From IMG/VR virus record IMGVR_UViG_3300039412_000320: DNA of 47,493 nt. One strand, written 5' to 3'. The DNA comes from a virus. Shown here one piece after another: positions 13,823 through 44,436 of this stretch. A program made the position numbers and the translations under genes. Numbering within the stretch: the stretch's first letter is position 1; each line of letters starts with the position of its first letter. The notes beneath the pieces were generated by a model. That model worked only from the letters and a program-made list of their open reading frames with translations, ran no database searches and had not been told where the DNA came from.

Positions 13823-13837
13823 ACAGTATACCACGAA
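13823..13837 (-). promoter_or_regulatory. Conserved extended -10 promoter element, copy 1
   Basis: The minus strand reads TTTCGTGGTATACTGTAGG directly followed by ATG. Confidence 0.5.
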
Positions 13838-13887
13838 ACTCCATCATTTTAGTGAAAAACCAAAAATCTACAGTTATCCTTAATGTT

Positions 13888-14622
13888 CTACGTTTTTGTT
13901 ATGTGTTTAGTTACTCTCTTGTTATACTTACCATCTATCCAAGCTCTTCTTATTCCCCCACTTATTTTCTTTCGTGATTCATCGGTTAGCTTTATACCCA
14001 TATGATACCTTTTTATTTTTTCAAGTCCTTGAGGAGTTAACTTCCATTTTTTACCCCTCTTTCTGCTTTCTTTAACCATTTTTCTAAAGTCGGAATTATC
14101 CCACAGTTTTTTGCTAATTTCTGAACGAAGGGTACGAAGTTCCGAGTTAGCCCATGTTTTAATTACGGCTTTAGTGACTTTAGCACGAAGGGTTGGATTT
14201 TTAGCCCACACCTCTCTACTGGTTTCACTTTTCTCGGCACGAAGTTTATTGTCAGACCATCTTTTTTTCTGAGCTTGGGACATTCTTTGGCGACTTTCTT
14301 GAGATACAGGCCCCGTAAATCCTTCCCCTTCTCGGCAGATGTTATAGCCATACTCTGAGTCTTGAGACTTTAGAAACTTAATAAAATCTTGTTCAATTTC
14401 ATTAAGTTCTTTTCTTGTCTGGATATCCGACCGGAGAGCATGAATAGACCAGACTTTAGGGTCAGGGTGTGCTCTCATTGAATTATAGAGGTGGGAACGG
14501 GTGGAGATTCCCGTCTGGGCATGATTGAATTTTTGCTGTAGATACTTTGTTAAGTTATTTCCCTTGTGCTGCCCAACATAGTATTTTCCTGTTATACTAT
14601 TGACGATTAGATAAATGAACAT
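13888..14622 (-). CDS. GIY-YIG homing endonuclease, paralog of 30648..31346
   Basis: It starts MFIYLIVNSITGKYYVGQHKG, carries EYGYNICREGEGFTGP and has a basic C-terminal tail. The start is the ATG at 14622 behind SD GGGGGAGG. The track start at 14637 lies inside that SD. Confidence 0.85.
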   Translation of the reverse strand: MFIYLIVNSITGKYYVGQHKGNNLTKYLQQKFNHAQTGISTRSHLYNSMRAHPDPKVWSIHALRSDIQTRKELNEIEQDFIKFLKSQDSEYGYNICREGEGFTGPVSQESRQRMSQAQKKRWSDNKLRAEKSETSREVWAKNPTLRAKVTKAVIKTWANSELRTLRSEISKKLWDNSDFRKMVKESRKRGKKWKLTPQGLEKIKRYHMGIKLTDESRKKISGGIRRAWIDGKYNKRVTKHITKT

Positions 14623-14658
14623 AACAACCTCCCCCATAATAGTATTAGGAAGTTGTTT

Positions 14659-14892
14659 TTAACAATTAAACCAGATTATGTGGGTGTAAAGCTCGTCAAA
14701 GTTGTGGTCCCACACGCAGGGGTTGATGCGCTCGTCTGACATCAAGGGAGGCCGGGCGTAGTATCCTATACCGTCGCTTCCCACCACGGGGGCAATGTTG
14801 CGATAAAAATCCTCAATGGTGTATACGTCCCCGTAATCCGGTATTGGACGCCACTCAGGTTCCCGTTTTGTCGGCGGTGGTCCCTGTATCAT
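14659..14892 (-). CDS. hypothetical protein, 77 aa
   Basis: The ORF shows ATGA coupling with the upstream gene. Confidence 0.45.
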   Translation of the reverse strand: MIQGPPPTKREPEWRPIPDYGDVYTIEDFYRNIAPVVGSDGIGYYARPPLMSDERINPCVWDHNFDELYTHIIWFNC

Positions 14893-15428
14893 AACTTTCT
14901 CATTTCCGGCAGTAAGTCCTCTTCTTGCATGTACTTGTCCACCAAGTAGGCGATGGCATAGAACGCCAGTTGGGGACCATGCTGGAGGGACGGGATGCCA
15001 AAGGTCTGCGTGTGCGGCACATGGTACTTCTCAATGGGAAGGGAGTACACGCCTTCCTTGGAGCCGTACAGCACCGCTCTTGGACCTCCTGCGGGGGCAA
15101 GGCTGAGGCCGGGCGGCGGACAGACGGCGATGAGGGATACACCTTCAAACTCTTTCTCAAGCTGCAATCGGTAACCGAACAAGCCGCCGACACCAATGCC
15201 AATGAGCAGAACCTTAGAATTCTCCACCGGCTTCCACGTCAGGGTAGTGCGGTCCATACCGGGCGTACCGGGGAGGTTGGGATTCATGACTTCCGGGGTG
15301 AATTTCTGGAAGAACGTGTCCGCAGGAAAGCGCTCCCGGAGTAGCTTACAAAGCTTGTCGGAAAACTCGATGGATTCCTCCCCCTTGTCAGTCAGAATAT
15401 AGTGGATATAGAATCGGCTCTGTTTCAT
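14889..15428 (-). CDS. hypothetical protein, 179 aa, with a Gly-rich loop (LLIGIGVGGLFG)
   Basis: The ORF shows coupling at both ends. Confidence 0.55.
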   Translation of the reverse strand: MKQSRFYIHYILTDKGEESIEFSDKLCKLLRERFPADTFFQKFTPEVMNPNLPGTPGMDRTTLTWKPVENSKVLLIGIGVGGLFGYRLQLEKEFEGVSLIAVCPPPGLSLAPAGGPRAVLYGSKEGVYSLPIEKYHVPHTQTFGIPSLQHGPQLAFYAIAYLVDKYMQEEDLLPEMRKL

Positions 15429-15748
15429 ATGTTGCTCCGTTCCCGAACGGGAACATCTGTCTCATTTGTCTCGTTTACAGGGCATTTGTTCCCGAGCGGT
15501 AACTTGAGGTTCTCGGGGTGTACCCACAACCCGAATCCATCGGGACACCTGAGAAAAAATCTCCCAAATATCACATCGTAATCAGTCAGCGTCCCGGAGA
15601 GACCGGTTGTGGTTTCCGCTTTGTCTCCCACCTTGAACATACCCATCTCCAAGTCTGAAAGGCTCGGTAGCGCCAATATCTCCACCAAGTCATCCCTATT
15701 GCCGTGCTGGCGGCGACCGCCGCCGCTGTCTGAGGTCAAAGAGCGCAC
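15425..15748 (-). CDS. hypothetical protein
   Basis: The long form overlaps the upstream HNH gene by 13 nt. An alternative start at 15640 (MFKVGDK) behind GGAG is possible. Confidence 0.4.
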   Translation of the reverse strand: MRSLTSDSGGGRRQHGNRDDLVEILALPSLSDLEMGMFKVGDKAETTTGLSGTLTDYDVIFGRFFLRCPDGFGLWVHPENLKLPLGNKCPVNETNETDVPVRERSNI

Positions 15749-16584
15749 ATTATGTTTCCTATGCCGAGACGGCTACATGCCTTCAACTTTTGATACCATC
15801 CCGGAAGCCAATCACGTATCTCGTCCAAGGTCAAGTCCTGCTTGACGGCGTTTGCCTTGTAGGTACACAGGACTACATTGCTCTCCTCATACCCCCGCTC
15901 TGGAACTACCTTGTCAAAGGACAATGATGTTCTTAAGCCCGCCACCTTTGAACGGGGGGCAAGCGCCATCTGTTCGCCTGTGTAAAAGCACTTACCCCTT
16001 TGTTCAGTATATATCCTCCAAGCGTCTTCTACCGTCAGTCTGAAAATGACCCCGAGTTTCCGGGACCTTGCCGCCAAGTCGTTCACCCGCTTGCGGAGAT
16101 AGGTTAACGGGTCGGATAGCCGCTTGAAGGTCTTATCTCTCTGGCACTCCTTGCAGAACGATGACTCGGATATCGTCCTTCCGTTTGACCTTGGAGAGCC
16201 GAACTCATCAGAGGACTTGGAGTGCTTGCATATAGAACAGATGATGTGACCATCCCCCGTGTATTGCCTTCTTGGCTTATGGTTGATGACCCGCTTCCCA
16301 AGCAAAAATGAGGAGACTGTGCTCTTTCCTATATCAAGTTCGCTGGCAATCTCCCAATCATTCAGGCCCCCAGCATGCAACTGGATAATCTGTCTCCGTA
16401 TATCATCGGTTATGGGGGTTTTGTCACCCTTCTTGCGCCTATGGACGACCCTCCTGCCCTCCAGATAATGCTGGACGTTGGTCTTGCTCGTTCCGAGCTT
16501 ATCGGCAATCTCCTTGTCCTTCAGCCCTTGCTGGTGCAGACTCAGGATTTGTGCGATTATACTATCATTAGTCTTAGTCGGCAT
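15736..16584 (-). CDS. HNH-family homing endonuclease with two N-terminal HTH motifs
   Basis: The HTH motifs are IADKLGTSKTNVQHYL and IASELDIGKSTVSSFL. The C-terminus carries SFDKVVPERGYEESNVVLCTYKANAVKQD. It is a paralog of 18552..19325. Confidence 0.7.
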   Translation of the reverse strand: MPTKTNDSIIAQILSLHQQGLKDKEIADKLGTSKTNVQHYLEGRRVVHRRKKGDKTPITDDIRRQIIQLHAGGLNDWEIASELDIGKSTVSSFLLGKRVINHKPRRQYTGDGHIICSICKHSKSSDEFGSPRSNGRTISESSFCKECQRDKTFKRLSDPLTYLRKRVNDLAARSRKLGVIFRLTVEDAWRIYTEQRGKCFYTGEQMALAPRSKVAGLRTSLSFDKVVPERGYEESNVVLCTYKANAVKQDLTLDEIRDWLPGWYQKLKACSRLGIGNIMCAL

Positions 16585-16645
16585 TTATGAACCCACCTAG
16601 TGAATTTGCATTTATCTAAGCACTGGGTAGTTCATTTTTTGATAT

Positions 16646-17899
16646 TCATTCTCCCTTGCCATCGAAATAGTATGTTTCCTCCCGACCATAGGGACGAACC
16701 ATCTTCCATAAAATCTCATAGGCTCCAACAATGTTGCCGTTCTCTAGCTTGATGGCAGCATTGACAATATCAACGGGAAAACACCCATGCAAGTAGTGCA
16801 GCCTGTTTCGGTGCTCAGGGTAGATGCCACGCTCTAACTCGTTGTAAGCCTTCTGTGCTTTCAGGGCTTGCAAAAGCTTATCGTGGAACGCCTTGTACAA
16901 TCCCATCTGCCAACCTTTGACCCATTTGGCAAAGTCCCTTGGAACAGACAAATCGTAGAGGACTTCACCTGTATTATGGTTCAGCTTGCTGTTATGGTCA
17001 AGCCAGGGAGACATGGGATTGTGCATTTCTTGCCAGATTTTCTGGGGTGTGACTCCCGTGACAATCCTGTGGATTCTACAGTACTCGGCGAGCTTCACCT
17101 TCGCCCGGACAGGCGGGAAGTGAGGCCGGTAGACGGCAGCAACATAGCCCTCCTCCGTCATGTCCTTGTCCGCCATGCACTCTTCCACCGACATGTCGAA
17201 CTTCGGCACCAACCGGCACCAGTCCCGGTCCTTGGCATAGCTGTTTAGCTGCTTGTGGAAAGCCTCAAGCTCGGGGTATTCCAATTCCTCCCCGGTCTCG
17301 TTGGCAATGGCAGCAATAAGCACCAGCCCCTCGAAGTTGTAGGGGACAACCACCTTGGTAATCTTGGAGATAATCTCAAAGAACAGAGTGGTATCCTCGG
17401 GAAGGAAATCAGCGAACGCCCTATACTTGACGAACTTCTGCACCTTCTCCGTGGCATACTGCGCCCCCGGCGAGTCAAAGGAACCCCGGCTGGCGACCCC
17501 GTAGATGCCCTCGTAGTGCCACGAGATTCCCGCCCACCCATCCAGCTTGCGGGTGATGGTTATAGGAGACCTCCACATCTTCGCCTGCCCGAGGAGGAAC
17601 TCTGGGGTGAACGTCTCGTCTTGAACTTCCAACTCCCCCTGATTGTTGCGGAAAATGTGGGGTCCTCTTTGGTTGAGGTTGAAAAATTTTGATGGGGGTC
17701 TGGATACAATCACCCCGGCGTCATCCACAATCAGACCACGGCAGATACAAGCTTCAAGAGACCAGTGATTCTCGAAAGTACAACGATTCGAGTAATTCAG
17801 GATTCGCAGGGGCAGTGCGGGGTGACGGCGCTCATTGATAAAACCCTCCCTGATTTGCTTGTTCAGTTCGTCAATGTTTAGCAGATTTTCAAGCTTCAT
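16646..17899 (-). CDS. RNA ligase, Rnl1-like (T4 RnlA-type)
   Basis: The KxDG adenylyltransferase motif I reads ITRKLDGWAG near residue 108. There is an EGLVLI motif-IV-like segment. The ORF is 417 aa and shares an operon with Pnkp. Confidence 0.65.
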   Translation of the reverse strand: MKLENLLNIDELNKQIREGFINERRHPALPLRILNYSNRCTFENHWSLEACICRGLIVDDAGVIVSRPPSKFFNLNQRGPHIFRNNQGELEVQDETFTPEFLLGQAKMWRSPITITRKLDGWAGISWHYEGIYGVASRGSFDSPGAQYATEKVQKFVKYRAFADFLPEDTTLFFEIISKITKVVVPYNFEGLVLIAAIANETGEELEYPELEAFHKQLNSYAKDRDWCRLVPKFDMSVEECMADKDMTEEGYVAAVYRPHFPPVRAKVKLAEYCRIHRIVTGVTPQKIWQEMHNPMSPWLDHNSKLNHNTGEVLYDLSVPRDFAKWVKGWQMGLYKAFHDKLLQALKAQKAYNELERGIYPEHRNRLHYLHGCFPVDIVNAAIKLENGNIVGAYEILWKMVRPYGREETYYFDGKGE

Positions 17900-18555
17900 A
17901 AATCCATCTCTTGTGCTTTAAGCAAGGCTTTCAGTCGTTCTATTTCTTTCTCCATTGCTAAAGGGTTACATTTTGGGTGGGCGAATCCATAGATTTCGCC
18001 TGTTTTATGGTCATGATGAAGGTGGGGAGTTTTTCCACGTGCTAACACTTTCCATGACAGTGTTTCTCCACAACATTCGCAGTTAGGCTCCTCCATCAAT
18101 TTACGAATTACCGTATGAGGGGTATCTTGAAAAATGGGTTGGTATCTCCCCTTTTTTGCTCTGTCATTAGAACCCTTGATAATGAAAGACACACGACAAA
18201 CATATTGTCTTTTCCCTCGATGAGTTCCTGCCATAGAAAACTTGTTTGAACCTTCTACAGGGAGAACTCCACTGCACCCACACGGAAAAGCGTGAAATTC
18301 TCCGGGATTCTGGACATTAAGTGGTTGGCTACCACGGTCCTTCCTGCACCGTTCTTTTTTACAAACTTTACACTCTCCTTGTCCACGGTTAGCAACAGAA
18401 AAACTAGATGTTAAAGATGTCAGTTTAATACCGCATCCGAAACAAGTGCCGTTGCCGTGACAACCACCTTTGGGACCATGATTATGTGGTCTAGTGCAGA
18501 TTCCCCGGTCGGCTCCATTCCTCGCTTTCGGCATTGGCTTGCCACAGATGCTCAT
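17896..18555 (-). CDS. Endonuclease VII-like HNH endonuclease
   Basis: It carries PHLHHDHKTGEIYGFAHPKCN, an EndoVII/HNH motif. The ATG at 18555 overlaps the upstream stop (ATGA). Confidence 0.7.
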   Translation of the reverse strand: MSICGKPMPKARNGADRGICTRPHNHGPKGGCHGNGTCFGCGIKLTSLTSSFSVANRGQGECKVCKKERCRKDRGSQPLNVQNPGEFHAFPCGCSGVLPVEGSNKFSMAGTHRGKRQYVCRVSFIIKGSNDRAKKGRYQPIFQDTPHTVIRKLMEEPNCECCGETLSWKVLARGKTPHLHHDHKTGEIYGFAHPKCNPLAMEKEIERLKALLKAQEMDL

Positions 18556-19325
18556 AAGACCCTCTTGAACTTTTCCGCCCGAGCATACCAATCGGGCATC
18601 CAAGTCATCATTTCCTCCAAGGTTACATCATTTTTTATGGTGTTCACCCGTTTACCACAGAGCACGACATTTCCTTTGACATACCCCCCTTCCGGGACTA
18701 CCCTGTCAACCGAAAGGGTTAAAGCTGCATTAGGCTCCAAACTGAGTGGATAGTCGGTATAGAAACACCTACCATCCTGTTCTTCATACTGTCGATATAG
18801 GTCCTCTGGGTTGATGCTGAAAAGCACCTTGTTTTTCTCAGAACTTTTTCTAAGCCTGCCCCATCTTGCTTTCAGGTATTTACGAAAATCAGAGGCCATT
18901 CTGAGAGTGCTTTCTTTTTCTCGGCATCCACGGCACACCGACTCCCTGTATGGGTCATTTCCCGGTCGAGCAACCAACTTGAAATCACCGACAGGCTTCA
19001 CTTCTTTACACTTCCAACATCTCGCCCGTTCGGCATCTATGATATCCAGCCTATGCCTGATACGGGAGCTTGACCTTAGTCCGTGCTTACTCAGTGTTTC
19101 TCTGACCGTGTTTCTCGATACGCCAAATTGCAGAGCAATCTTACGATTAGACACCCCGTCTTTGTTGAGGCTTACTGCTTGTTCTTCTTGTTCTGGCGTC
19201 AAAGCACGGCTCTTGATTCCTGAACAAGTTTGGCATATTGAGCCGTCTTTAATCGCTTGCCAATAGGAGCTATACCGCTTGTATTCCCTTTCCTTCCCAC
19301 AGCGTGGGCAGTTCAGTTTCCACAT
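18552..19325 (-). CDS. HNH-family homing endonuclease with HTH, paralog of 15736..16584
   Basis: It has an N-terminal zinc ribbon (CPRCG...CQTCSG), an HTH (IALQFGVSRNTVRETL) and LSVDRVVPEGGYVKGNVVLCGKRVNTIKND. Confidence 0.7.
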   Translation of the reverse strand: MWKLNCPRCGKEREYKRYSSYWQAIKDGSICQTCSGIKSRALTPEQEEQAVSLNKDGVSNRKIALQFGVSRNTVRETLSKHGLRSSSRIRHRLDIIDAERARCWKCKEVKPVGDFKLVARPGNDPYRESVCRGCREKESTLRMASDFRKYLKARWGRLRKSSEKNKVLFSINPEDLYRQYEEQDGRCFYTDYPLSLEPNAALTLSVDRVVPEGGYVKGNVVLCGKRVNTIKNDVTLEEMMTWMPDWYARAEKFKRVL

Positions 19326-19382: not shown

Positions 19383-20471
19383 TCAAAAATCTTCGTAGGC
19401 TCCGCATCGGGGGCAATGCCTCCAACCTTTCTTTTCCGGCTTGAACTGGCAAGTAGCAGAGTGGTCCGTGGTTCCGCCCACAGGGTAAACCTTGAACCCC
19501 ATGTCCTTCCACATACGGATTACTTGCCATCTGTCATCAATCAAAAAAGCTATTCGTTCCTTCGGAATGACCCGGAGTATCGTCTCCATAATCCGTCGCT
19601 TGACGATATAATCGTGGTCAAAGTTGGTAGCCGGGCGCATCAAGAGGAGGTCGAATGGCACCCGATAACAACTCAGCCAAGAACAAGTGTCTGTCGAGCA
19701 GGAGTCGTGTCTTCCACTGAGAATTCCGATATTGTGGGTGCTGTACAGTCCCCGGACCCACTTCGCCACGCCCTCCCGGCAGGAGTCCAGCAGGACCTTC
19801 GTCTCGTCGAACTGGTTCCGCTCGCCCTCGTTCTCGGCAAGGCTGCCGTCCACGTCGCAGAACACCCACGGTGCGCCCGGCAGGCGCTCGTGAAAGTCCC
19901 TGCCCCCGGCGATGACGGCGTTAAGCTCGTTCCAGTCGTCTACCGCCCGGTTGGTTTCATCCAGACCGTAGCCAGCCGGGCGGACGGTTGTTTCCCGCAG
20001 CCGCTTGAACTGTTGGTCGATGGCTTCCTCGGGCACGCATTCTTTGCCGGTGCGTAGGGCGTTCCGCCGCTTACACTCTTCCTTGTCCACGTTCATGACA
20101 TGCAGGCAGAACTTTACCCGAGCGCCACGGGCAATCTCTTCCAGCTTTTGCCGGGTGCGGGACACGCAGTTGGTGTCATCCACGATGACGTTGAGTCCCA
20201 TGGCGAGGAACATACGGATGCCCTCTTCCTCATACTTGCGGACCACATCTTCCTTCGAGTGGTTCCACGGGGAATCACAGTAGAGCATGGCACGGATGGT
20301 GTCCCGGTTTACCCGGACGGTCGCTCCCGCTGCCCAGTTGACAAGACTGCGGGCATGGGTGGACTTTCCTGAGCCAGCCGGGCCGACCATAACGGTCAGC
20401 GTGGGGGCATTTTCCTTACCCCCGGAGTAATCCATGTACTGTTCACTGTGCGATGTCTTTTCGAGTTCCAT
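19383..20471 (-). CDS. Polynucleotide 5'-kinase/3'-phosphatase (T4 Pnk-like, bifunctional)
   Basis: The N-terminal Walker A is VMVGPAGSGKST. The C-terminal HAD phosphatase motif is VFCDVDGSLA. The gene has its own promoter element plus SD GAGGAG. Confidence 0.85.
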   Translation of the reverse strand: MELEKTSHSEQYMDYSGGKENAPTLTVMVGPAGSGKSTHARSLVNWAAGATVRVNRDTIRAMLYCDSPWNHSKEDVVRKYEEEGIRMFLAMGLNVIVDDTNCVSRTRQKLEEIARGARVKFCLHVMNVDKEECKRRNALRTGKECVPEEAIDQQFKRLRETTVRPAGYGLDETNRAVDDWNELNAVIAGGRDFHERLPGAPWVFCDVDGSLAENEGERNQFDETKVLLDSCREGVAKWVRGLYSTHNIGILSGRHDSCSTDTCSWLSCYRVPFDLLLMRPATNFDHDYIVKRRIMETILRVIPKERIAFLIDDRWQVIRMWKDMGFKVYPVGGTTDHSATCQFKPEKKGWRHCPRCGAYEDF

Positions 20472-20485
20472 AGGTCTCCTCAGTA

Positions 20486-20500
20486 ACAGTATACCACGAA
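20486..20500 (-). promoter_or_regulatory. Conserved extended -10 promoter element, copy 2
   Basis: The minus strand reads CTTCGTGGTATACTGTTACTGAGGAGACCT ATG. Confidence 0.5.
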
Positions 20501-20501
20501 G

Positions 20502-20774
20502 TCAGGCGGCAGTGGAGGAAAATGTGCTGCGTTTCTTTGCCCACGCCTTTTTGTCCTTGGGGGTGCTGGTCAGGCCATGGGAGATAACGTCCTTCAAAAC
20601 CCCCATAAGTTCAAGAATCTTAGCAACATCCGCCTCTTCAAGGTAGACATTGTTGCCGTCCCGGCTGATGACTCGGGCGTAAATGGTGTTGGGCGCTCCA
20701 AAGCAGTCATCGCCCCGTTTGTTGATTTGGACGCTGTTACATCCCACGGTGCAAGTCAGTGTTCCAGTGCTCAT
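20502..20774 (-). CDS. hypothetical protein, 90 aa
   Basis: Called on ORF and coupling to the upstream gene. Confidence 0.45.
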   Translation of the reverse strand: MSTGTLTCTVGCNSVQINKRGDDCFGAPNTIYARVISRDGNNVYLEEADVAKILELMGVLKDVISHGLTSTPKDKKAWAKKRSTFSSTAA

Positions 20775-21784: not shown

Positions 21785-22154
21785 ACAGCCTCCTTGAAAT
21801 TTGGGCGGGCTTAGGGTTACCAGCCCTTTGATACGGAGATTGGAAATCTCACTCCGCCCTCATGTGAATGAGGGTGCTCTCTACCCGATTCCGAAAAGGC
21901 TATGGTCACTAGCCTCCCCGGCCTCGAATAAGTCTCAGACTGGCAACGATGGCCTATCGCCCTCCAGTCTAAGAACTCCAACTGAGCTACCCGCCGAAAA
22001 CTCTGCGCCCATGGTCGGCGGCTCCATCCGAGTCGAACGGATGCCGGAAGGTTATGAGGCTTCTGGCTTTCCTAAAAGAGCCGTCCCTGTTTCCCCACCG
22101 TAACGTCAGACCCGTGGCGATGCGAGTCCTACAAACCGGCAGGGGCCGGGCAAC
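21785..22154 (-). ncRNA. ORF-free structured region with tRNA-like elements; candidate ncRNA or degenerate tRNA gene(s)
   Basis: There is a perfect hairpin CCCTCAT-GTGA-ATGAGGG at 21858..21875. At 22018..22083 (minus) the sequence reads CGGCTCT..GAAGC-CTCATAA-CCTTC..ATCCG-TTCGACT-CGGAT-GGAGCCG, i.e. acceptor stem, a CAU anticodon loop and a canonical T-arm, but the D-arm is too short. At 21978..21996 (minus) there is a CGGCGGGTAGCTCAGTTGG motif that looks like a tRNA 5' end. Confidence 0.3.
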
Positions 22155-23417: not shown

Positions 23418-23897
23418 TTATAATCGCCCTCCAATCAGGCGCTCAATTTCGGATTTCTCAACGCCCCACCAGCCGGGGTCGCTGTAGTACTTGTAACTGC
23501 CTTTTTCGCCTTTGAATTCCATGATGGAGTAGTCATCCCGGTCGGGATGGCTGGAATAGCTCCGGTTATCATAGTGTTCCACAAGGATGTTGGTGCGGTC
23601 GGACGTGGGGCCGAATACGTGCCCAAGGCTAAACTGCTCTTCGACGGCATCAGCGACCATTTCAATTCCATTGGTGATGGAACAACCGGGGTTGGTGTCA
23701 ATCTCCGTGGCGATAAAGACTTTGCGGTCGGGGCCTACATAGGCGTCCAGATGACAGGCAGCGATTTGTCTGCCGTAGCCCTTGTAGTTGAACTTTCCTG
23801 AAAAAATTAGGGCGAGGGGTTTGCTGGAAGGTTCCAGCTTTAGGTCTTCCAATGTGATAGGCGATACAGCCTGCGCTTTGGTAAAAGCCATAGACAT
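23418..23897 (-). CDS. hypothetical protein, 159 aa
   Basis: The conserved promoter element plus SD GAGGAG lie upstream. Confidence 0.55.
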   Translation of the reverse strand: MSMAFTKAQAVSPITLEDLKLEPSSKPLALIFSGKFNYKGYGRQIAACHLDAYVGPDRKVFIATEIDTNPGCSITNGIEMVADAVEEQFSLGHVFGPTSDRTNILVEHYDNRSYSSHPDRDDYSIMEFKGEKGSYKYYSDPGWWGVEKSEIERLIGGRL

Positions 23898-23910
23898 GTT
23901 CTCCTCAATT

Positions 23911-23925
23911 ATAGTATACCACGAG
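23911..23925 (-). promoter_or_regulatory. Conserved extended -10 promoter element, copy 3
   Basis: The minus strand reads TCTCGTGGTATACTATAATTGAGGAGAACA ATG. Confidence 0.5.
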
Positions 23926-23936
23926 AAGAGAGGAAT

Positions 23937-26264
23937 TTAGGGATTTTTTTCAAGCGGTAGGATTCTCTTGGGGTTGAGCAAGTCGTTGGAGGCCACTCGA
24001 TTGGTCAGGGAGGTGTAGTACTTCCCTTGTGCCTTCGCCTCCCGGCGCTTGGCATCACGGAAATCTTCCAATTTATTCAACAGGATAACGCCTTCGGGCC
24101 AGTCCTCACCATTTTGACGAAGCCAGCGTACATACTCGGCAATCTCGTGCGCCGGATACCACAAGGGGTCATCCCGGTCAGGTTCGGGGTAAGTGGTCTC
24201 CTGTCGATACTCAGCCTCGGCAATCCGTTCCAGCTTATCCTCATAAGGTTGGCTACGCTGTTTCAGGATGTCTTCACCATCCGGCCATACCCCCACAACC
24301 GGCTCCATGGGCTTATTCCAGTTGGGAACCTCATAGGTGTGCTTTTCGGGCTTAAGCAGATTGAGATACCCGGCAACCAAAGCTTGGTTGCTCTGCCACA
24401 TGTCGGGATAATCCTTGTATCTTTGAAGAAGAACCGCCTCCAACTCAGGCCAGCGGCCCTTGATGACATCTTTGATATATCCCCCCATGGCACCGGGGAA
24501 CTTGTCATCGTGGTATGAGTTACGCTCCAGACGCTCAAAATCATCCGGGATGAGTTCATTCTTTTTATCCCTCATCTCGTTGAGGTATCGCTCCTCCAAC
24601 TCAGGCCAGCGACCCTTGATAATCTGCTCAGCGTAGTCGGCCCTCACGGCATCTTTATTGACATATTTCGTGGTCGATTTCGTGGCGGGGACCACAGGAT
24701 TTCCGGGATTATCACGCATCCACTGCCTCCGGTCCCGCTTATCCATAGGCTCTTGAACATTGTAGAAAACTAACTTGGGTTGGGTGAGCATGGCTTCCAA
24801 CCGGGGGTCTCTCGCTCCCCCTTTCATGTTATTCAAATAGTCAAAGTAGGTGGTATAGTTGTGGTCAGCAAGCAGAATTTCTCCCAACTCGTCCCACGAT
24901 TCAATGTGAAACGCCTTGGCATACTCCATGGCTTCCTTGGGAGCATACTTGCACATGAGCATTTCAGGCCGGGGCATACCGCCGAACTCGAAAGACCGTT
25001 GCGTGGATATTTCCCGCCACGGCTTTTTGATAATCTTCAAGGCATACTGAACAGCCAGTTTACCCATGGTCTCATTGCCAGCGGTAGTCCAGAACTTGTG
25101 CTCCAACGCTGTCCAACGTCCTTTGATGACCGTGGCAGCATAATTCAGTGCCCGTGTGGCGTTGTCGTTGTCTATCGCCGCCCGGCGCAGGAGGGTGGGT
25201 TCAATGGCAGGCCAGCGACCACGGATATGGTCATTGACATATTCTACAGCCGTTCCAATGTACTTGCCAAGGTTCTTAAGCAGAACATACTCGAACAACT
25301 CCCACCGCTGCCTCGGATAGAACTTGTCTGCATACCTCTTAAGCTTGGGGATTCCCACCGAAGGCCACTGGATTTTAAGATACTCCATCTCCTCTGGGGT
25401 GAGCGGGGTGCCGGTCAGTATATGACCATCTATCCAGTGGTCATTACTGGTGAGAAGCTGTTGACCCAGTATCACTGGGTCACTAAGGCTCTGCTTCTTC
25501 ATCCACGCATCCACCTGCGGGTCCACAGCAGCGATGTAGTCCGCTGCTTCCCGAGCTACCGGATGGGTGATGGCGGTACCAATGAGGGGTCCCGGAACGT
25601 CCTCGTAGTGCCCCCAACCCTTGTAACGCTTGCTCGTACTCGGCTGATGATATTGCACGATGAGAGACTCATCCCTGCGGTCCTTGTACTGATTGCTGGA
25701 GGGGTGAAGCTGAGCGAAGGGAAGTCCTCGGTAGAAAATCACATAGCTGGGTCCGGTTCTGAGGTAGCTGCTGGCGGCACCATGGCGGGTACACCATTCC
25801 GTTGAGTCGGAGAGAATGCGGAGCGCCTCGGGATTGGTCACCTTGAAGATAACGAAGTCACCCTTTTGAACGATGATTTGCTGTCCCGGCAAGTTCTTGA
25901 AGGTGTCAAAATTCTTGGAGCGAATGACCGTCATGGCATTCGCTTCGAGGGTCCGGGCAAGGTCTCCGGGGGTCTTATAACTGTTGATGTCCTTGTTGCC
26001 GCCAAAGCCCGGCTGGCGCTTCTGCGTCTGAAAACGGGAGAGGTTCTCCTTGATACCCTCGGCGTCCTCGGGGAGACGGATGAGACCACCCTTCACCATC
26101 CGGGCAAGCCAAGTCACAAAATCCGTTTGATTGGGGCTGGGGTCGGCGGCGATGCACATTTCCACCTGTTCCTTGGAAAGCTGCATCTGCCTCGTGAGGA
26201 GGTCGATTTTGGCATCCGAAGGGCGGGATGTGATGAGAAAGCTGGCTGTAAAGCTTAGGCCCAT
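23937..26264 (-). CDS. large hypothetical protein, 775 aa, with four internal (I/V)(I/R)KGRW(P/T)(E/A)(L/I)E repeats
   Basis: It is a long ORF with clean composition. The repeats are HIRGRWPAIEP, VIKGRWTALEH, IIKGRWPELEE and VIKGRWPELEA. The antisense 341-aa ORF was rejected. Confidence 0.65.
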   Translation of the reverse strand: MGLSFTASFLITSRPSDAKIDLLTRQMQLSKEQVEMCIAADPSPNQTDFVTWLARMVKGGLIRLPEDAEGIKENLSRFQTQKRQPGFGGNKDINSYKTPGDLARTLEANAMTVIRSKNFDTFKNLPGQQIIVQKGDFVIFKVTNPEALRILSDSTEWCTRHGAASSYLRTGPSYVIFYRGLPFAQLHPSSNQYKDRRDESLIVQYHQPSTSKRYKGWGHYEDVPGPLIGTAITHPVAREAADYIAAVDPQVDAWMKKQSLSDPVILGQQLLTSNDHWIDGHILTGTPLTPEEMEYLKIQWPSVGIPKLKRYADKFYPRQRWELFEYVLLKNLGKYIGTAVEYVNDHIRGRWPAIEPTLLRRAAIDNDNATRALNYAATVIKGRWTALEHKFWTTAGNETMGKLAVQYALKIIKKPWREISTQRSFEFGGMPRPEMLMCKYAPKEAMEYAKAFHIESWDELGEILLADHNYTTYFDYLNNMKGGARDPRLEAMLTQPKLVFYNVQEPMDKRDRRQWMRDNPGNPVVPATKSTTKYVNKDAVRADYAEQIIKGRWPELEERYLNEMRDKKNELIPDDFERLERNSYHDDKFPGAMGGYIKDVIKGRWPELEAVLLQRYKDYPDMWQSNQALVAGYLNLLKPEKHTYEVPNWNKPMEPVVGVWPDGEDILKQRSQPYEDKLERIAEAEYRQETTYPEPDRDDPLWYPAHEIAEYVRWLRQNGEDWPEGVILLNKLEDFRDAKRREAKAQGKYYTSLTNRVASNDLLNPKRILPLEKNP

Positions 26265-29314: not shown

Positions 29315-30055
29315 TTAGCCATCCTCCAGAGGAGCGGGTGCGACCGGTTCCGTCTTGGGAACCTGTCCCGTCTCTGGAGGATGCTTGAGGTAATAGGTAG
29401 CTTCAAACTCCGCTTTGGGAATAGGAGGAAGCCCCTTGTTCTTGCGCAGAAGATTTGCCTGCGCCCACAACTTACGGCACTTGTAATGAACGCTCTCCGT
29501 GTCGCTCTTGTAGGTCGCCGGACGACCACCCTTCCGGGGCGGCTTAGGCACTTTGACTTTCGTGGGTTTCCTACCCCGCTTGGGTTTCTCAGGCGGTGGT
29601 TGTGGCGGCGGTGGGTCACCCGGCTGAGTCCATGGAGCAGGCGGCGGCTCGGGGACGGTTTCTTCCACCGGCTCCGGGACCACCACTGGTTCAGGGGGAA
29701 CCTCTATCACCGGTTCAGGAGTAACTTCAATTACCGGCTCCGGGGTTGGGGCAGGCGGAACGGCTGGTGCTGCCTCGGGAATCTGTATAGGCACAATGCC
29801 CGGAAGAACAACAGGTGGGGTGGGTACAACTTCCTCCACAATGGGTCCAAAATGCCAATCGGATATGATGGCCGGTGTGGGGGTTTTAACCAAACCGGTC
29901 AATTCGTTGAGAACCTCGGCCTTGACTTCATCTTTAAGCTGCTGCTTAAGCTTCATCAAAAAGGGAGCTAGAAGCGAGAGCAACTCATTGATTTCAGGCG
30001 GGTACTCCTCGGGAACAAGCCTAATGATAGGTGGACCCTTGCGAGTAATTTCCAT
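29315..30055 (-). CDS. proline-rich protein with AT-hook-like KRGRKP / RKGGRP motifs
   Basis: The likely start is the ATG at 30055 behind SD GGGAGGA. The longer GTG-initiated form reaching 30193 is unsupported. It contains PEPVIEV tandem repeats. Confidence 0.5.
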   Translation of the reverse strand: MEITRKGPPIIRLVPEEYPPEINELLSLLAPFLMKLKQQLKDEVKAEVLNELTGLVKTPTPAIISDWHFGPIVEEVVPTPPVVLPGIVPIQIPEAAPAVPPAPTPEPVIEVTPEPVIEVPPEPVVVPEPVEETVPEPPPAPWTQPGDPPPPQPPPEKPKRGRKPTKVKVPKPPRKGGRPATYKSDTESVHYKCRKLWAQANLLRKNKGLPPIPKAEFEATYYLKHPPETGQVPKTEPVAPAPLEDG

Positions 30056-30229
30056 ACTCAATCCTCCCAAGCTAATAGTGGATACCGGGGAATAAAGACA
30101 CTCCCGGCTAATAATAATACCAGAGAAATCATGGAAAAATCGGCAATTCCTTAGACGCATCAGAGGCGCATAAAGTTTCACCCTCCTTTCCACGGACTGC
30201 CAAGCAGCCCGGAAAACATCTTCCCACTT

Positions 30230-30244
30230 ACAGTATACCTCGAA
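30230..30244 (-). promoter_or_regulatory. Conserved promoter element, copy 4 (AGG variant)
   Basis: The minus strand reads TTTCGAGGTATACTGTAAGTGGGAAG ATG. A 13-codon uORF follows, and the main ATG is 170 nt downstream. Confidence 0.4.
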
Positions 30245-30299
30245 ATTGGGGTAAAAAACCGAAATTTTAACTACCTACCCCATCTAATAGGAGAGTGTC

Positions 30300-36153: not shown

Positions 36154-36155
36154 AC

Positions 36156-37106: not shown

Positions 37107-37578
37107 ACTAGCTTATGTTGCTTACGTGAAAAACCATCGAGATTCAAAAGGAAAGGCCGCTCCTTGGGTTGTCAAAGACCATAAAGACGACCATATTATT
37201 TCCTCGCATAAAACAGAAACCGAGGCTAAGACTCATCTCCAACAGATGCACGTCCATTCTGGTTCTATCAAAACCTCTGATATGATGACACAAACCACTG
37301 TACGCCTTGTCGATAAGAATGGATATAGTAACGGAGAATGGTATGTAAAGCCCGGAGATACTGCTAAGTTGACCTATATTCAAAAGCAGTTGGCATTAGC
37401 TCAAGAGGAAGAACCCCAAGGGGGTTGGAAATTACAGACACGTGGAACCTCCCTCGGATGGCACGACTGGAACAAAAACTTTGAAGACCCCTACACTAAG
37501 AAAGCCTATGGCGTACACCCGGAAGGTTGTGAGTGTGGTTTCTGCAAGAAGAAGGGGGACATCGGGGGCAAGAAGTAA
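37096..37578 (+). CDS. hypothetical protein, about 160 aa
   Basis: The ATG at 37096 sits behind GGAGG and overlaps the HNH stop. The longer 36976 form would overlap the HNH gene by 130 nt. Confidence 0.5.
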   Translation: MLIKLAYVAYVKNHRDSKGKAAPWVVKDHKDDHIISSHKTETEAKTHLQQMHVHSGSIKTSDMMTQTTVRLVDKNGYSNGEWYVKPGDTAKLTYIQKQLALAQEEEPQGGWKLQTRGTSLGWHDWNKNFEDPYTKKAYGVHPEGCECGFCKKKGDIGGKK

Positions 37579-37635
37579 GAGAAGGACGAAAAGAAGACCG
37601 CCGCCGAGAAGCCGCTCTCTCCCATTGAAAAGAGG

Positions 37636-40122
37636 TTGATGGAGAGGGGATTCCGCTACACGAAGGAAAATCACCCCTTCCTCACCGACCTTAAAATCCC
37701 CACCTATATCCGGGGAGACGGCCCCGGTGCGGACGTGATTTTCATTTTCCAAGGAAAGCCGCTTACTTCCGACCAGATGTACGAGGAAGTCAAGAACAAC
37801 TGGCGTCCTGCCCGGAGCGATGAGAGGAACTGGCTAGCATCCGGTGGATTGGAGCGCTACTTCATCAAGAGTCAGCCCAAGGCAGCCGGACGTTCTTCCA
37901 CCCCCAAATTCGTTCTGCGAATGCACGTGCCGGGATACCACATCACCGACTCGGCATGGAATGTCGGTGGTGGACATGGACAGGTGCCGGGAATGGGTCG
38001 GCCTTCACCCGAAAGTCTTGCTCGTTACATTGACTCCTTCATTAAGAGCACCCAGCCGGGCGGAACCAATGAACACCTTGGACCCATGGTCCCCACTGAT
38101 GCCGCCATCTATCTGAATGACGGCACCTACACCAACCCGGTAGCGGTATGGAAGAACCCCAAGACCGCCGCCACGCCCATCAAGAAGCGGGTGCAGGCGG
38201 ACACGGCAGACAATCCCGCCAACGAACGGGGCGGGGAAGGAGCCATGGACCCCAAGACCGACAAGGAGAAGAAGGTTACAGCCTCCTTAGACCCACTGGT
38301 AGTAAAGTACGGGAAGGTCAAAGACTCACTGGGAAAAATCAAGGAAGGGTGGTTAATCCTTGATGGCAGCCAAGTCCGGGGAGTTCACGCCACTAAGGAA
38401 AAAGCAGTAGGTGCGGCGGAGGGTATCGCCAGCATCAGCATCGTGGGCGGGGTCAAGTGTCCCGTTAAGGTTGCAAAGACCGCCGAAGCCCAGATGCACT
38501 GTCCCATGTGCAAGGGAACTGCCCGCAAGGCAAAGCCCGAAGACGAGCAGTACTTCTGCTCGTGCGGATGGAGGTCTGGTACAGCGCAGGAAGTCTCCGA
38601 AATGCGGCGTCCCAAGGACCAAAAGAACGCCACGAAAAAGACGGCCTCTGTTGACGCAGCCGAACTGATTGCCGAAGAGCTTATGCGTGCGCCGGATGAG
38701 GAGGAAGATGTCATTGTCGCTTCCACCAAGTTCAAGCAAGCGTCGGCTCAACGGGAATCGGCTCTCCGTCACAACCGCCGCCAGCACAAGCTGGATGGTG
38801 AGGACGGGGACGACTTCTACGGCGTTATCGACGCCGCATGGAACGGCCTCAAGGATAGTATGCGGGCACGGTGGGCTTCTTTGGAAGTAACCAAGGTCGC
38901 CGACCAATCCGTTGAACCGGACATCTTCGAAGCCAAAGCGGCCATTGAGGGCGAGAGCAAAGCTGACCTCTCACAGGAGAAGAGCGAAGGCGGACCCGAG
39001 GTTGCTACCAAGACCACCGAAGTCTGCGAGCTTGCTGACCAGAAGACCTCGCCGGACCACGGCGGGGTTCCCCGGCTGGCAGGAGACATCAACATCTCTG
39101 TATCCACCGATGACAGCAAGTCCAAGGTAAAGTCCAAGCTCCCCCTTGGAGATGGCAAGGAAGACAAGAAGGAAGACAAGAAAGACAAGAAAGACAAGAA
39201 AAAGAAAGCCGACCTTGGCAGCGCCGGTAACCTGATGGACCAGCGGGATAAGCTCTACTCCGCCCTGTCCACCGCTACCCCGGCGAGGAAGACTACCCTC
39301 ATGCGGGAAGTGGAGAAACTCAATCGAGCCATTGAATCCGAAGGGGTGAATGACCGGAGCCTGAATTCGGCTCCTTCCGAGCCGTGGGGAAAACTGACCA
39401 GTGCCAAAACCAAGAATGCTGACCAATCGGTGACCCCCGACATCAGTAAAGCCAAGTCCAAGCTTACCCATGGGGCAAAGGAGACCATTGGGGTATCCAA
39501 TGACCCCACCTACAAGGAAACCAAACAGCCCATTGAGCTAGCCAAGCAGGCTGACCAATCGGTTTCCCCGGATATTGAAAAGGCTCGGGCGGCGGTCAAG
39601 GGTCAATCCAAAGACCAGTTAGCTGACAACCCGGACGCTACCAAGACCACCGATGCTCGGGAGCTTGAGAAGCAGGCGTGCGCACCCCTCGGCGATGACC
39701 TTGACGAGGCGGTGGAAGTTGGCTACATCGGTGACCTTGCTGACCTCGGAGCCAACCTTCCCGAAGTAGCCAACAGCAAGGAGGAGCCGCATGAGAGCTA
39801 TCAGGCGGGCGAGGGCGGGCTGAACAATGAACCAAAACAGGCGGGTAAGACCGCCGCTTCCCCCGAAGCCTTGGAAAAGGCCCAGTGGCTCATCGACAAC
39901 GATGATGAAATCATCTACGATGTCGCCGCCAACGTTGGTCAAATCGTAGACAACGTGAAGCACATGCGTTGGTTCCTAAACGCCGTGGCGGATGAAATCG
40001 AAGAGGGTGAGAACGTCAACATGGCGGTGGAGGGGGAACTTCCCGGCAAGCGGGAGATGAAGAGCAGGACTACCCCGGCTGACATTCCGGTGCAGCCTGA
40101 GAGAAAAACAAGGGGAATGTAA
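37636..40122 (+). CDS. large hypothetical protein, 828 aa
   Basis: It has three ADQSV(E/T/S)PDI..AK repeats, a K/D-rich tract (KEDKKEDKKDKKDKKKK) and a second copy of the ADTADNP..NE.GG..PKTD.EK module near residues 180-215. Confidence 0.7.
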   Translation: MMERGFRYTKENHPFLTDLKIPTYIRGDGPGADVIFIFQGKPLTSDQMYEEVKNNWRPARSDERNWLASGGLERYFIKSQPKAAGRSSTPKFVLRMHVPGYHITDSAWNVGGGHGQVPGMGRPSPESLARYIDSFIKSTQPGGTNEHLGPMVPTDAAIYLNDGTYTNPVAVWKNPKTAATPIKKRVQADTADNPANERGGEGAMDPKTDKEKKVTASLDPLVVKYGKVKDSLGKIKEGWLILDGSQVRGVHATKEKAVGAAEGIASISIVGGVKCPVKVAKTAEAQMHCPMCKGTARKAKPEDEQYFCSCGWRSGTAQEVSEMRRPKDQKNATKKTASVDAAELIAEELMRAPDEEEDVIVASTKFKQASAQRESALRHNRRQHKLDGEDGDDFYGVIDAAWNGLKDSMRARWASLEVTKVADQSVEPDIFEAKAAIEGESKADLSQEKSEGGPEVATKTTEVCELADQKTSPDHGGVPRLAGDINISVSTDDSKSKVKSKLPLGDGKEDKKEDKKDKKDKKKKADLGSAGNLMDQRDKLYSALSTATPARKTTLMREVEKLNRAIESEGVNDRSLNSAPSEPWGKLTSAKTKNADQSVTPDISKAKSKLTHGAKETIGVSNDPTYKETKQPIELAKQADQSVSPDIEKARAAVKGQSKDQLADNPDATKTTDARELEKQACAPLGDDLDEAVEVGYIGDLADLGANLPEVANSKEEPHESYQAGEGGLNNEPKQAGKTAASPEALEKAQWLIDNDDEIIYDVAANVGQIVDNVKHMRWFLNAVADEIEEGENVNMAVEGELPGKREMKSRTTPADIPVQPERKTRGM

Positions 40123-43209: not shown

Positions 43210-43210
43210 A

Positions 43211-44002
43211 CTAGACCTCTCCCCAATCCTGTGGACAAGGGATGGGCGCTGCCGGACCTTCAACCGCTGAGGGGGTTCCTCCGTGCCTCGCATAAAAGTC
43301 AGCCATGAAGGCTTCCTTGGGTAGGGGAGCAAGCCCCTTCTTCCGACGCACCAGACAATTCTGGACCCAACAGCGGCGTGCCCGGTAATGCAACCCCCTG
43401 CGGTCACCTTTACCCATGTTGGGACGGCCCCGGTGCCTGCGGGTCTCCACCACCCCAAACTCCTCCGCTGCTTTGAAAACCGTGGAGACGCTTATGTTCA
43501 GAGAGTCAGCAACCTCTTGGTAAGAGGCTTCGGGGTTCCGCCTGAGAACCTCCGCCAGAATCCGTCTGTATTCAAATTGTTCTTTCTGGAGGGGAGTGAA
43601 ACTACGGGACTCCTTGTACTGTTGGCGATTGACGGGGGTGACCACTGCGTAGCTCCGTAATTTGTACTTCTTGGCGATTTGCTGCACCGTGCTATTCCAT
43701 TTGAGTTCGGCAAGCTTGGCAATCTCGCCATAAGATAAAGTACTGCTTTTCAGGAGAAAAACGGTGAGGTCCACTTTATCTTGAGGAACGTCCTTATCCC
43801 TTAGCCGGACCCTCTCAGGCTTATCCATGGGTTCGGGGGGATTGACCGCCCCGCCCACCGCCCGGTCATACCACTCCAAGGTGGGCACCCAACGCCGGTT
43901 TGGCGGCAGGGAGTGGCTTTGATTAGGGTCTAAAGCATCTTCCACGAGCAGCCTATCGTAAAGGGACAGGTCAGCCCTTCGCAACTGAGTTTCTACTTTC
44001 AT
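43211..44002 (-). CDS. DNA-binding protein with two sigma-70 region-4-like HTH motifs (homing-endonuclease-like binding module without a nuclease domain)
   Basis: The HTH motifs are SYGEIAKLAELKWNSTVQQIAKKY and SYQEVADSLNISVSTVFKAAEEFG. The ATG at 44002 sits behind SD GAGGTG. The track's longer start at 44206 would overlap the upstream gene. Confidence 0.5.
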   Translation of the reverse strand: MKVETQLRRADLSLYDRLLVEDALDPNQSHSLPPNRRWVPTLEWYDRAVGGAVNPPEPMDKPERVRLRDKDVPQDKVDLTVFLLKSSTLSYGEIAKLAELKWNSTVQQIAKKYKLRSYAVVTPVNRQQYKESRSFTPLQKEQFEYRRILAEVLRRNPEASYQEVADSLNISVSTVFKAAEEFGVVETRRHRGRPNMGKGDRRGLHYRARRCWVQNCLVRRKKGLAPLPKEAFMADFYARHGGTPSAVEGPAAPIPCPQDWGEV

Positions 44003-44009
44003 ACACACC

Positions 44010-44363
44010 TCAACGTTTAAGTGAATGCTTCTCCCGCAGGGGAGAGTGATACACCGCTCCAAGCTCCGCTCCTGTGCCGATTTTCCCCGATTCCTTCCCC
44101 ACCGCCCCCTCGCCTTTACCGCCGAAGGTCGCCAGTGGACCGAAAGAACCACGATTCTGCGCCTTATTAAAACGCTCAGCCTCTTTTCGATTGTCCGTGA
44201 TTTCAATGATTTGCGTGTGTTTTCCGTCCCAAGCGACCTTTGCCATTTTCATTTCGGTAGTCTCTTCCGAGCAGTTGGGACAATGGGTCGATAACCCCGG
44301 TTTGCCGGGGAGTAGGACAAAATCACGATAGCACTTGATACACGTGCGGACTTGAGCAGGCAT
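44010..44363 (-). CDS. zinc-ribbon protein, about 117 aa
   Basis: It carries CIKC...CPNC. The ATG at 44363 sits behind the promoter element plus SD GGAGG. Confidence 0.5.
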   Translation of the reverse strand: MPAQVRTCIKCYRDFVLLPGKPGLSTHCPNCSEETTEMKMAKVAWDGKHTQIIEITDNRKEAERFNKAQNRGSFGPLATFGGKGEGAVGKESGKIGTGAELGAVYHSPLREKHSLKR

Positions 44364-44376
44364 GGTGCCTCCACTT

Positions 44377-44391
44377 ACAGTATACCACGCC
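44377..44391 (-). promoter_or_regulatory. Conserved extended -10 promoter element, copy 5
   Basis: The minus strand reads GGCGTGGTATACTGTAAGTGGAGGCACC ATG. Confidence 0.5.
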
Positions 44392-44421
44392 GGTAAAAAA
44401 ATCCTCATAAAATTGTGGGGA

Positions 44422-44436
44422 GTGAGGTATACTGAG
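44422..44436 (+). promoter_or_regulatory. Conserved promoter element, copy 6; the only plus-orientation copy, divergent from copy 5
   Basis: The plus strand reads GTGAGGTATACTGAGAGTGGAGGGATAT ATG. Confidence 0.45.

Follow-up and report, generated by a model that had tools for sequence, protein, structure and literature searches.

A 51-bp module stands in front of six gene starts in the IMG/VR virus record IMGVR_UViG_3300039412_000320, and its features suggest that it is probably a strong extended -10 promoter of the early class, used by the host RNA polymerase holoenzyme carrying the primary sigma factor. The analysis covers the whole stretch of 47,493 bases, which is referred to as the window, and positions follow window numbering unless another sequence is named. 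A preliminary description of this DNA had pointed out a six-copy promoter-like element upstream of gene starts. Allowing up to one mismatch, the window contains TGGTATACT 20 times, as against 5.3 times expected, a count reached in none of 100 shuffles. We ran the check proposed in that description, a position weight matrix made from the six sites (22 nt). The window scores are bimodal, with the six sites at 24.5-33.6 bits and the next-ranking site at 14.2 bits; hence the window contains exactly six copies, without a seventh near their scores. All six lie in the non-coding DNA, which makes up 6.6% of the window, and each is co-oriented with a gene, an open reading frame (ORF) starting 6-16 nt past the hexamer. 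On the minus strand, the -10 hexamers TATACT at 13825-13830, 20488-20493, 23913-23918, 30232-30237, and 44379-44384 face the gene starts 13818, 20471, 23897, 30219/30193, and 44363, respectively; the single plus-strand copy (44428-44433) faces 44450. The coordinates and starts first given for the six copies are correct. The core word GGTATACT is found a seventh time at 26417-26424 (minus strand), within the endonuclease ORF 26273-26938 and with a AAAATTCCTAAAAG tract directly upstream. It has the wrong spacing and no start downstream, and is thus probably a chance match or a decayed copy. GTATAC was also considered as a restriction or operator palindrome, and rejected for showing no depletion (12 sites, 11.6 expected).

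The anatomy of the module was derived from a logo of 27 independent sites aligned on the hexamer, and it is the same in the six window copies and in the copies retrieved from flanks. Block A (-44 to -36) reads AnAAAWWYC with 87% A+T, and block B (-32 to -28) reads AAAWW with 77% A+T measured over -32 to -27; the segments neighbouring these two blocks have 40-48% A+T. Block C extends from -17 to +7 and reads C-G-T-G-G-TATACT-G-(T/A)-(A)-A-G-T-G-G-(A/G)-G-G-G-A, its columns being partly fixed by the retrieval patterns, including the invariance of G-16 across the 27 sites. Blocks A and B were absent from every search pattern, and hence their conservation is unbiased. With these A/T blocks the element spans about 51 bp, not the 16-25 nt first described, and the TTCG reported before the -10 is really (T/C)-C-G, of which only G-16 is invariant among the six window copies. 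The hexamer is TATACT in 27 of 27 logo sites, with the A-11 and T-7 that TAnnnT requires. Specifically, G-14, T-12, A-11, T-10, T-7, and T-1 are invariant, G+1 is present in 26 of the 27 sites, and position -15 is T in 23 and A in the other four; the window copies split into four with TGG and two with AGG. In sigma-70 holoenzymes, A-11 and T-7 are flipped into pockets of sigma, contact of TG at -15/-14 with sigma region 3.0 renders a -35 hexamer dispensable, and initiation favours a purine about 7 nt past the hexamer with a pyrimidine before it. Judged by sequence, the module invariants A-11, T-7, G-14, and T-1/G+1 fit the positions read by holoenzymes of this family.

No TTGACA-like hexamer accompanies the -10. 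The best TTGACA match at 16-18 bp averages 2.85 of 6, versus 2.39 of 6 at random positions; matches of at least 4 of 6 occur at 11% of the sites and at 11% of random positions, and a consensus scan gave no enrichment. With A-11, T-7, and G-14 invariant and TTGACA at random level, the element agrees with the earlier assignment to an extended -10 promoter-like class without a canonical -35. The upstream region is not empty, however, but holds the conserved A/T block. An UP element, the site of the C-terminal domain of the alpha subunit, consists of A/T-rich sequence lying upstream of -38, in which the proximal subsite AAAAAARNR occupies -46 to -38. The A/T block of the module is located about 2 bp downstream of this subsite, and a distal subsite is lacking.

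The block covers the place of a -35 or an activator box. This position favours a second explanation, namely that the phage redirects the host polymerase by a sigma factor of its own or by a MotA/AsiA-like activator acting on the A/T block or on the CGTGG/GTAAGTG flanks, in which case the module would define a phage-specific class of the middle type. The very high information content and the invariant positions outside the sigma-70 contacts point in the same direction, and so do the orphan helix-turn-helix (HTH) proteins encoded beside copies. We regard such redirection as possible though unlikely. In the T4 middle promoter, the MotA box (a/t)(a/t)(a/t)TGCTT(t/c)A is centred at -30 in place of the -35. 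In contrast, the logo shows no TGCTT between -36 and -26, the block of the module is centred near -40, and the family searches of the window and of the sampled relative ORFs gave no match to a sigma, MotA, or AsiA family.

The upstream side was also inspected for terminators. Folding of -134 to -40 at 25 sites revealed no hairpin in common (mean z -0.38), and terminator-like sites are not enriched near the copies. The proposal that the element delineates operons is therefore half true. The copies mark unit starts, but no terminators or stem-loops are found beside them; hence they would add transcription inside co-directional gene arrays rather than bound insulated operons.

The six modules differ in the way they connect to their genes. 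Module 1 (13812..13862, minus strand, -44 to +7) has its -10 at 13830..13825, the TGG at 13833..13831, and a predicted +1 at 13818, which is the A of the ATG. Hence its mRNA would be leaderless, and the spacing of 6 nt between -10 and ATG is as claimed. The gene behind it, the first of unit 1 (13291..13818, minus), encodes a 175-residue protein with a CxxC motif and without family match. Module 2 (20475..20525, minus; -10 20493..20488; predicted +1 20481) is followed by the Shine-Dalgarno sequence GAGGAG and the ATG 20471 at +11. It serves the polynucleotide kinase-phosphatase Pnkp, a protein with AAA_33 and HAD_PNKP domains whose gene (19383..20471, minus) is the first of unit 2, with the RNA ligase gene 16646-17899 downstream; this module is kept at the homologous spot in relatives L001/L112. 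The Pnkp unit does have its own copy, as had been proposed. Module 3 (23900..23950, minus; -10 23918..23913; predicted +1 23906) has the ATG 23897 at +10, and its A-block GAAAAAAATCCCTAAATTC overlaps the end of a gene for a 775-residue protein. The first gene of unit 3 (23418..23897, minus) encodes a 159-residue protein without function assignment, and the peptide deformylase gene 22155-22676 comes after it. Module 4 (30219..30269, minus; -10 30237..30232; predicted +1 30225) is followed by the ATG 30219 at +7, which opens an upstream ORF (uORF) of 13 codons. The protein served by this module has 246 residues and no function assignment (29315..30055, minus), and its gene equals the call of the Joint Genome Institute.

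Modules 5 and 6 stand back to back at 44.4 kb, the divergent pair of the preliminary description. Module 5 (44366..44416, minus; -10 44384..44379; predicted +1 44372) carries the Shine-Dalgarno sequence GGAGG with the ATG 44363 at +10, and is kept in L140. Its unit (43211..44363, minus) is composed of a gene for a 117-residue zinc-ribbon protein (44010-44363) and one for a 263-residue orphan with two HTH motifs (43211-44002). This orphan was tried as a sigma factor and rejected, with weak matches to sigma-region-4-like or generic HTH families and two homologues found. Module 6 (44396..44446, plus; -10 44428..44433; predicted +1 44440) carries GGAGGG with the ATG 44450 at +11 and serves a 157-residue protein without function assignment (44450..44923, plus). 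The two hexamers are 43 bp apart and have one A/T block in common, read in both senses; hence simultaneous occupancy by two polymerases is hardly possible. The GGAGG/GAGGAG sequences reported for four copies were seen, and they begin 7 nt after the -10. The distance from hexamer to ATG is 6 nt once, 12 nt three times (two of these being the window and relative copies of site 4), mostly 15-17 nt, and 19 and 23 nt once each.

We then compared the sites with their homologues, using identity of the 775-residue marker protein as the measure of distance (45% for L115, and 43-45% for the relatives with homologues of sites 3 and 4). Site 1 is TATACT-gtaggt-ATG. In L115, where the first 66 residues of the homologous gene product show 64% identity, the site is GGTGTATAAT-aggggt-ATG with a TATAAT hexamer. 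The leaderless spacing of 6 nt is retained although the spacer sequence has changed, so that the layout at 13.8 kb is also found in a distant relative. Homologues of site 3 read CCGAGGTATAAT.. in L117 and CCGGTGTATATT.. in L115. At the homologous positions of sites 3 and 4, the relatives have CCGAGGTATAAT-atgag-TGAGGAG, TCCGGTGTATATT-gtggg-TGGAGGG, and TTCGGTGTATAAT before the ATG. Distant relatives carry G(G/T)G-TATAAT, 5-6 nt, TG(A/G)GGAG, and ATG at homologous spots. The hexamers found in relatives are TATAAT or TATATT, with plain TATAAT in more distant ones. The site-3 homologues also have an upstream AAGAATCCCTGGAAATCC or AAAAAACCTGAAAAAAG block, and the A-block is thus kept in L115 and L117. 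In the close relatives L001 and L116, substitutions at site 3 fall in the -27 to -17 spacer and at -2, leaving the blocks untouched. These comparisons show an old architecture that is under constraint, within which the exact words have drifted, and a general polymerase therefore fits better than a dedicated recognition protein. The drift of the flanks, with TATAAT core and spacing staying in place, accordingly counts against a sigma factor or activator of the phage.

The window itself is a piece of a larger genome. Its close relative, 77-97% identical in nucleotide sequence and mosaic, is represented by two contigs in IMG/VR (316,945 and 237,553 bp) and one in ENA (364,142 bp). The 48,273-bp L050 was tried as an independent phage with the motif and rejected: it is the remainder of the relative's genome and has its ORF order in common with L142. 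L050 and the 317-kb contig come from one sample, and 316,945 + 48,273 is close to 364,142. A 548-residue protein matches gp348 of Tunturi_5, a 309-kb jumbo phage (PMC11924767), with conserved gene order, and about 175 residues, the N-terminal quarter of the 775-residue protein, match a PA5oct-type structural protein at about 27-30% identity. From the contigs of the relative and these matches we conclude that the window comes from an uncultivated jumbo phage with a genome of about 364 kb. When 20 kb were compared with phage records by megablast, no match was found.

The promoter class extends beyond the six sites of the preliminary description to the whole genome of this relative (~364 kb), in which there are at least 29 copies, 25 with TATACT and four with TATAAT or TATTAT. 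The copies were located by searching IMG/VR for exact words and then running the matrix over the stretches obtained. The four variants differ at -9 and -8 only and retain A-11 and T-7. The TATACT copies are located at 13.5, 14.3, 15.5, 16.6, 19.6, 21.6, 23.4, 24.4, 26.1, 38.46, 38.50, 50.3, 57.1, 60.3, 65.0, 125.3, 195.2, 195.9, 230.5, 231.3, 237.5, 260.8, and 310.5 kb, plus two on the 48-kb contig. A stretch of 12.6 kb holds nine copies, and each of them precedes one to three small ORFs without assigned function. Such one-promoter-per-gene clusters of ORFans resemble early regions, which argues against a middle-type class made by redirecting the host polymerase. Small ORFans and nucleic-acid enzymes make up the genes behind the copies; as such genes are typical of early regions, the class is probably early.

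Other genomes were searched as well. An IMG/VR scan with a 14-mer gave mostly chance matches. In 596 Gb of bacterial genomes there were four chance-like hits to the module word, none with a start codon at 6-23 nt spacing or with the A/T block, and therefore the module is not a motif of bacterial genomes. A protein scan of bacterial genome contigs found nothing. This absence speaks both for the host-sigma reading, in that other genomes offer no rival explanation, and for a host polymerase redirected by the phage.

Taken together, these features would make each copy a complete start module for transcription and translation of a jumbo phage, with the host primary-sigma holoenzyme as its probable reader. 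We infer firing, start position, reader, and timing as follows. A bacterial-type RNA polymerase with a sigma-70-family factor, most likely the host primary sigma, would bind without a -35 hexamer, using T-15 and G-14 and then TATACT at -12 to -7, and the UP-like phased A-tract block (-44 to -36 and -32 to -28) would aid binding. Initiation is predicted at the conserved T-1/G+1, 7 nt past the -10. Most mRNAs would then start with the Shine-Dalgarno sequence, as 5'-GGAGGGAA-N3-AUG with the AUG at +10 or +11, and the mRNA of one unit would start with the AUG itself. The preliminary description was right as to the kind of element, a promoter class, but not as to the suggested reader or timing. Nothing points to a middle or late class, given genes typical of early regions, and nothing points to a phage sigma factor or RNA polymerase, given sigma-70-like invariants, plain TATAAT in distant relatives, and no such domains found. 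Specifically, RNA polymerase and sigma domains were found neither in the window proteins nor, for the 60 largest ORFs in the sampled loci of the relative, among the 25 families listed, a listing that omits 14 weaker families.

Several points weigh against a host-sigma promoter of the early class. About 210 kb of the relative's genome lie outside the sampled loci, and therefore a phage sigma factor or RNA polymerase may exist there. The -17 to +7 segment holds about 30 bits, far beyond what a host sigma needs, and sigma-70 contacts do not account for the conserved C-8 (25 of 29 copies), G-16, G-6, A-3, and G-2. Compared with the textbook position of the proximal UP subsite, the A-block is displaced downstream by a few bp, and it covers the spot of a -35 or activator box. 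In addition, some columns of the logo were fixed by the retrieval patterns, and the early timing is derived from gene content only. A bolder reading of the same positions, which we consider doubtful, is that the module is the site of a phage-specific transcription device in a new jumbo clade. Its reader, a sigma factor or an activator appropriating sigma, would have escaped recognition so far and would contact both the A/T block and CGTGG..C-8..G-6..AAGTG, and the module would double as a portable cassette of promoter, ribosome site, and recombination site that shuffles host-takeover genes.

The length and uniformity of the -17 to +7 segment also resemble T7-type promoters, in which a long and uniform word likewise ends at +1. 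If the phage encoded its own RNA polymerase, whether single-subunit (T7/N4-like) or multisubunit (phiKZ-like), the word of about 24 bp that ends at the start site would be explained. The genome is that of a jumbo phage, some of which carry their own polymerases (PMC7318152), and the 775- and 1600-residue proteins have no family assignment. On the other hand, the module core follows the -10 rules of sigma-70 in both its variable and its invariant positions, the relatives use TATAAT, and the leaderless spacing equals the bacterial distance from -10 to start. The lack of polymerase domains in the window and in the listed families of the 60 largest sampled ORFs bears on this reading as well. As for the two large proteins, the first matches a PA5oct-type structural protein in its N-terminal quarter and the second corresponds to a DarB-like gene of Tunturi_5. 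A polymerase of the phage as the reader is hence quite improbable.

The uniformity of the copies has another possible source. L160 and L171 are without 2.65 kb of the 317-kb contig, corresponding to two promoter-gene cassettes. At the deletion junction (L160 7503-7530 and L171 12170-12197, versus 23,373-26,027 of contig 3300041809_000571) the homology blocks overlap by the 28-nt promoter core, and thus the junction is inside the module. This deletion is direct evidence of recombination between copies. Further homology breaks of L160 also begin at copies, and at site 1, where the window has an extra NUMOD3 endonuclease gene upstream, similarity to L001 resumes exactly at TTCG. Selection for strength and homogenisation by recombination between copies would together account for the near identity of the copies, which makes the uniformity explicable without a special factor.

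Since the copies coincide with indel and mosaic junctions and the window is crowded with homing endonuclease genes, we also weighed whether the repeat is a recombination or homing target that spreads cassettes, or, as the module includes the Shine-Dalgarno sequence, a translation-initiation or RNA-processing signal in long transcripts. That the repeat is not a promoter at all appears very improbable to us. The leaderless copy has no Shine-Dalgarno sequence but still has the whole upstream part; any plausible RNA signal has a further 44 bp of conserved sequence before it, at fixed spacing; and the invariant A-11/T-7 and the divergent pair on one A/T block are promoter features at the DNA level. 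Recombination at repeated promoters is, moreover, a known by-product (PMC2839356).

Three known systems come closest: extended -10 promoters, the early-promoter cassettes of T4-type phages, and the promoters without a -35 in Thermus phages. The module shares with the bacterial extended -10 (TGn) the TG one base before TAnnnT, A-11/T-7, Y-1/R+1, the absence of a -35, and a predicted start about 7 nt on. It differs from the cellular form in being far more uniform, in its conservation through the discriminator into the Shine-Dalgarno sequence, and in its A/T block at -44 to -28. The '-16 region' of Gram-positive bacteria is TRTG, which the RTG before the hexamer of the module resembles. In the Thermus phages P23-45 and phiYS40, middle and late promoters have an extended -10 without a -35, are used by the host polymerase, and frequently give leaderless mRNAs or very short leaders; these classes require phage proteins that prevent recognition of the -35, and they serve middle and late genes. 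The -35-less layout is common to the module and these promoters, whereas the words differ.

The early promoters of T4-type phages and their promoter-early stem-loop (PeSL) cassettes occur in repeated strong copies with A/T-rich upstream sequence, and the cassettes act as crossover points (PMC2839356, PMC4122927). The module is PeSL-like in its near-identical copies, A/T-rich upstream part, clusters before ORFans in plastic regions, and crossover points. Unlike PeSL, it has neither a -35 nor a GC-rich stem-loop terminator. PA5oct, a distant relative, is a jumbo myovirus that uses the host RNA polymerase and about 32 highly conserved sigma-70-like promoters (PMC7318152), a point in favour of the host-sigma reading; these promoters have TTGAC at -35 and TATAATA at -10, unlike the module (PMC7318152). 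The T4-type late promoter is TATAAATA at -10 with no other element, in contrast to the module core GGTATACT with its conserved flanks. A late-gene motif was sought ahead of the plus-strand block at 30300, and nothing convincing was found.

The copies would give a transcription map of this uncultivated phage (about 364 kb), whose genes mostly have no homologues: they mark the starts of at least 29 units and point to true start codons, leaderless genes, and a region that is probably early. They also show that genome mosaicism can break at promoter copies in phages other than the T4 group. The compact 51-bp module unites an A-tract, an extended -10, a fixed start, and a Shine-Dalgarno sequence at the 5' end, and could be used as a portable strong expression signal, provided that it is active in culturable hosts. 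The finding is sound but fairly ordinary, and does not change how phage promoters are thought to work.

Site 4 differs from the other sites by its leader. The uORF (30178..30219) has 13 codons in the window, but the T run has 5 nt in L001 and L116 and 4 nt in the window, so that in these two close relatives the uORF ATG is in frame and fused with the gene (301 codons). The distant L117 has stops in all frames, which makes it less likely that the uORF is an artefact of a frameshift. A strong Shine-Dalgarno sequence, AGGAGGATTGAGT, precedes the main start ATG 30055 (246 residues), which is conserved in all four genomes. Module 4 thus most likely feeds a leader of about 170 nt (30056..30225, minus), which contains the uORF, a TGGTATTAT word, a CCGGG..CCCGG hairpin, and blocks conserved with L117, namely TATGnGnCTCTGATGCGTCTAA, AATTGCCGATTTTT, and TCTGGTATTAnTAT. 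Nucleotide conservation of this leader with the distant relative exceeds that of the flanking proteins.

A second promoter-like word, AGTATTA, is found in 11 upstream regions versus 1.06 expected, in the form (c/t)AGTATTA(t/a) and often 5-6 nt before the ATG. It has neither the TG nor the distal A-block and is outside the six-copy class. In the window it lies at 12680..12694 (minus), where TATTAA and 6 nt lead to the ATG 12680 of the SNF2 helicase gene in a leaderless layout, and at 5243-5250 (minus), upstream of the phosphoesterase gene at 5218. The L001 homologue of the SNF2 site (21375) keeps word and distance with a different spacer. AGTATTA is also present in L148, L168, L169, L177, L050, and L134, and forms a back-to-back leaderless pair at 6143/6165 of L169. 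The genes behind it include those for a radical SAM enzyme and an HU-like protein; none is structural, and hence the class receives no temporal label. AGTATTA may be the factor-dependent class that the preliminary description had in mind, and the fact that this TG-less word fits such a class better is a further argument against assigning a phage factor to the six-copy module.

Family matches in the window are few and, apart from homing endonucleases, comprise the SNF2 helicase, Pnkp, a T4-type RNA ligase, peptide deformylase, phosphoesterases, and a C5 methylase. Nine homing-endonuclease-like genes of the GIY-YIG, NUMOD3, and HNH/EndoVII (with HTH) types are located within the 47 kb, at 1910-2623, 5212-5910, 30648-31346, and 36156-37106 on the plus strand and at 13888-14637, 15736-16584, 17896-18603, 18552-19325, and 26273-26938 on the minus strand. 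Several of them are missing or replaced in the close relative, where a radical SAM gene takes the place of 26273-26938. The region 34279-40122 (plus) corresponds to one gene of about 1,600 codons in relatives and to gp350, called DarB-like antirestriction, in Tunturi_5. In the window, this gene is split into ORFs of 624 and 828 codons by the HNH endonuclease gene 36156-37106, with about 530 bp extra. Past the left end of the window, L120 of the relative encodes an 813-residue protein (16491-18932, minus) with Major Vault Protein shoulder and vault-repeat domains (E values 1e-21 and 1e-10).

tRNA and Rfam scans of the window gave no match. An ORF-free gap between peptide deformylase and the Pnkp unit (21785-22154, minus) is conserved, and its counterpart in relatives (L001 13700-13873; L115 4910-5082) contains a tRNA-like RNA of 173-174 nt, to which ARAGORN and Rfam gave no match. 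This RNA has an 8-bp acceptor stem with CCA, a D-arm-like hairpin, three extra hairpins, and the canonical T-arm GGTTG-TTCGAGT-CAGCC, with a minimum free energy of about -85 kcal/mol (z -4 to -5); between the relatives the stems are retained and the sequence differs. In the window copy, the T-arm, the 3' acceptor strand, and CCA are deleted. The RNA may be a tRNA mimic like Y-RNA/YrlA, adjoining the RNA-repair genes.

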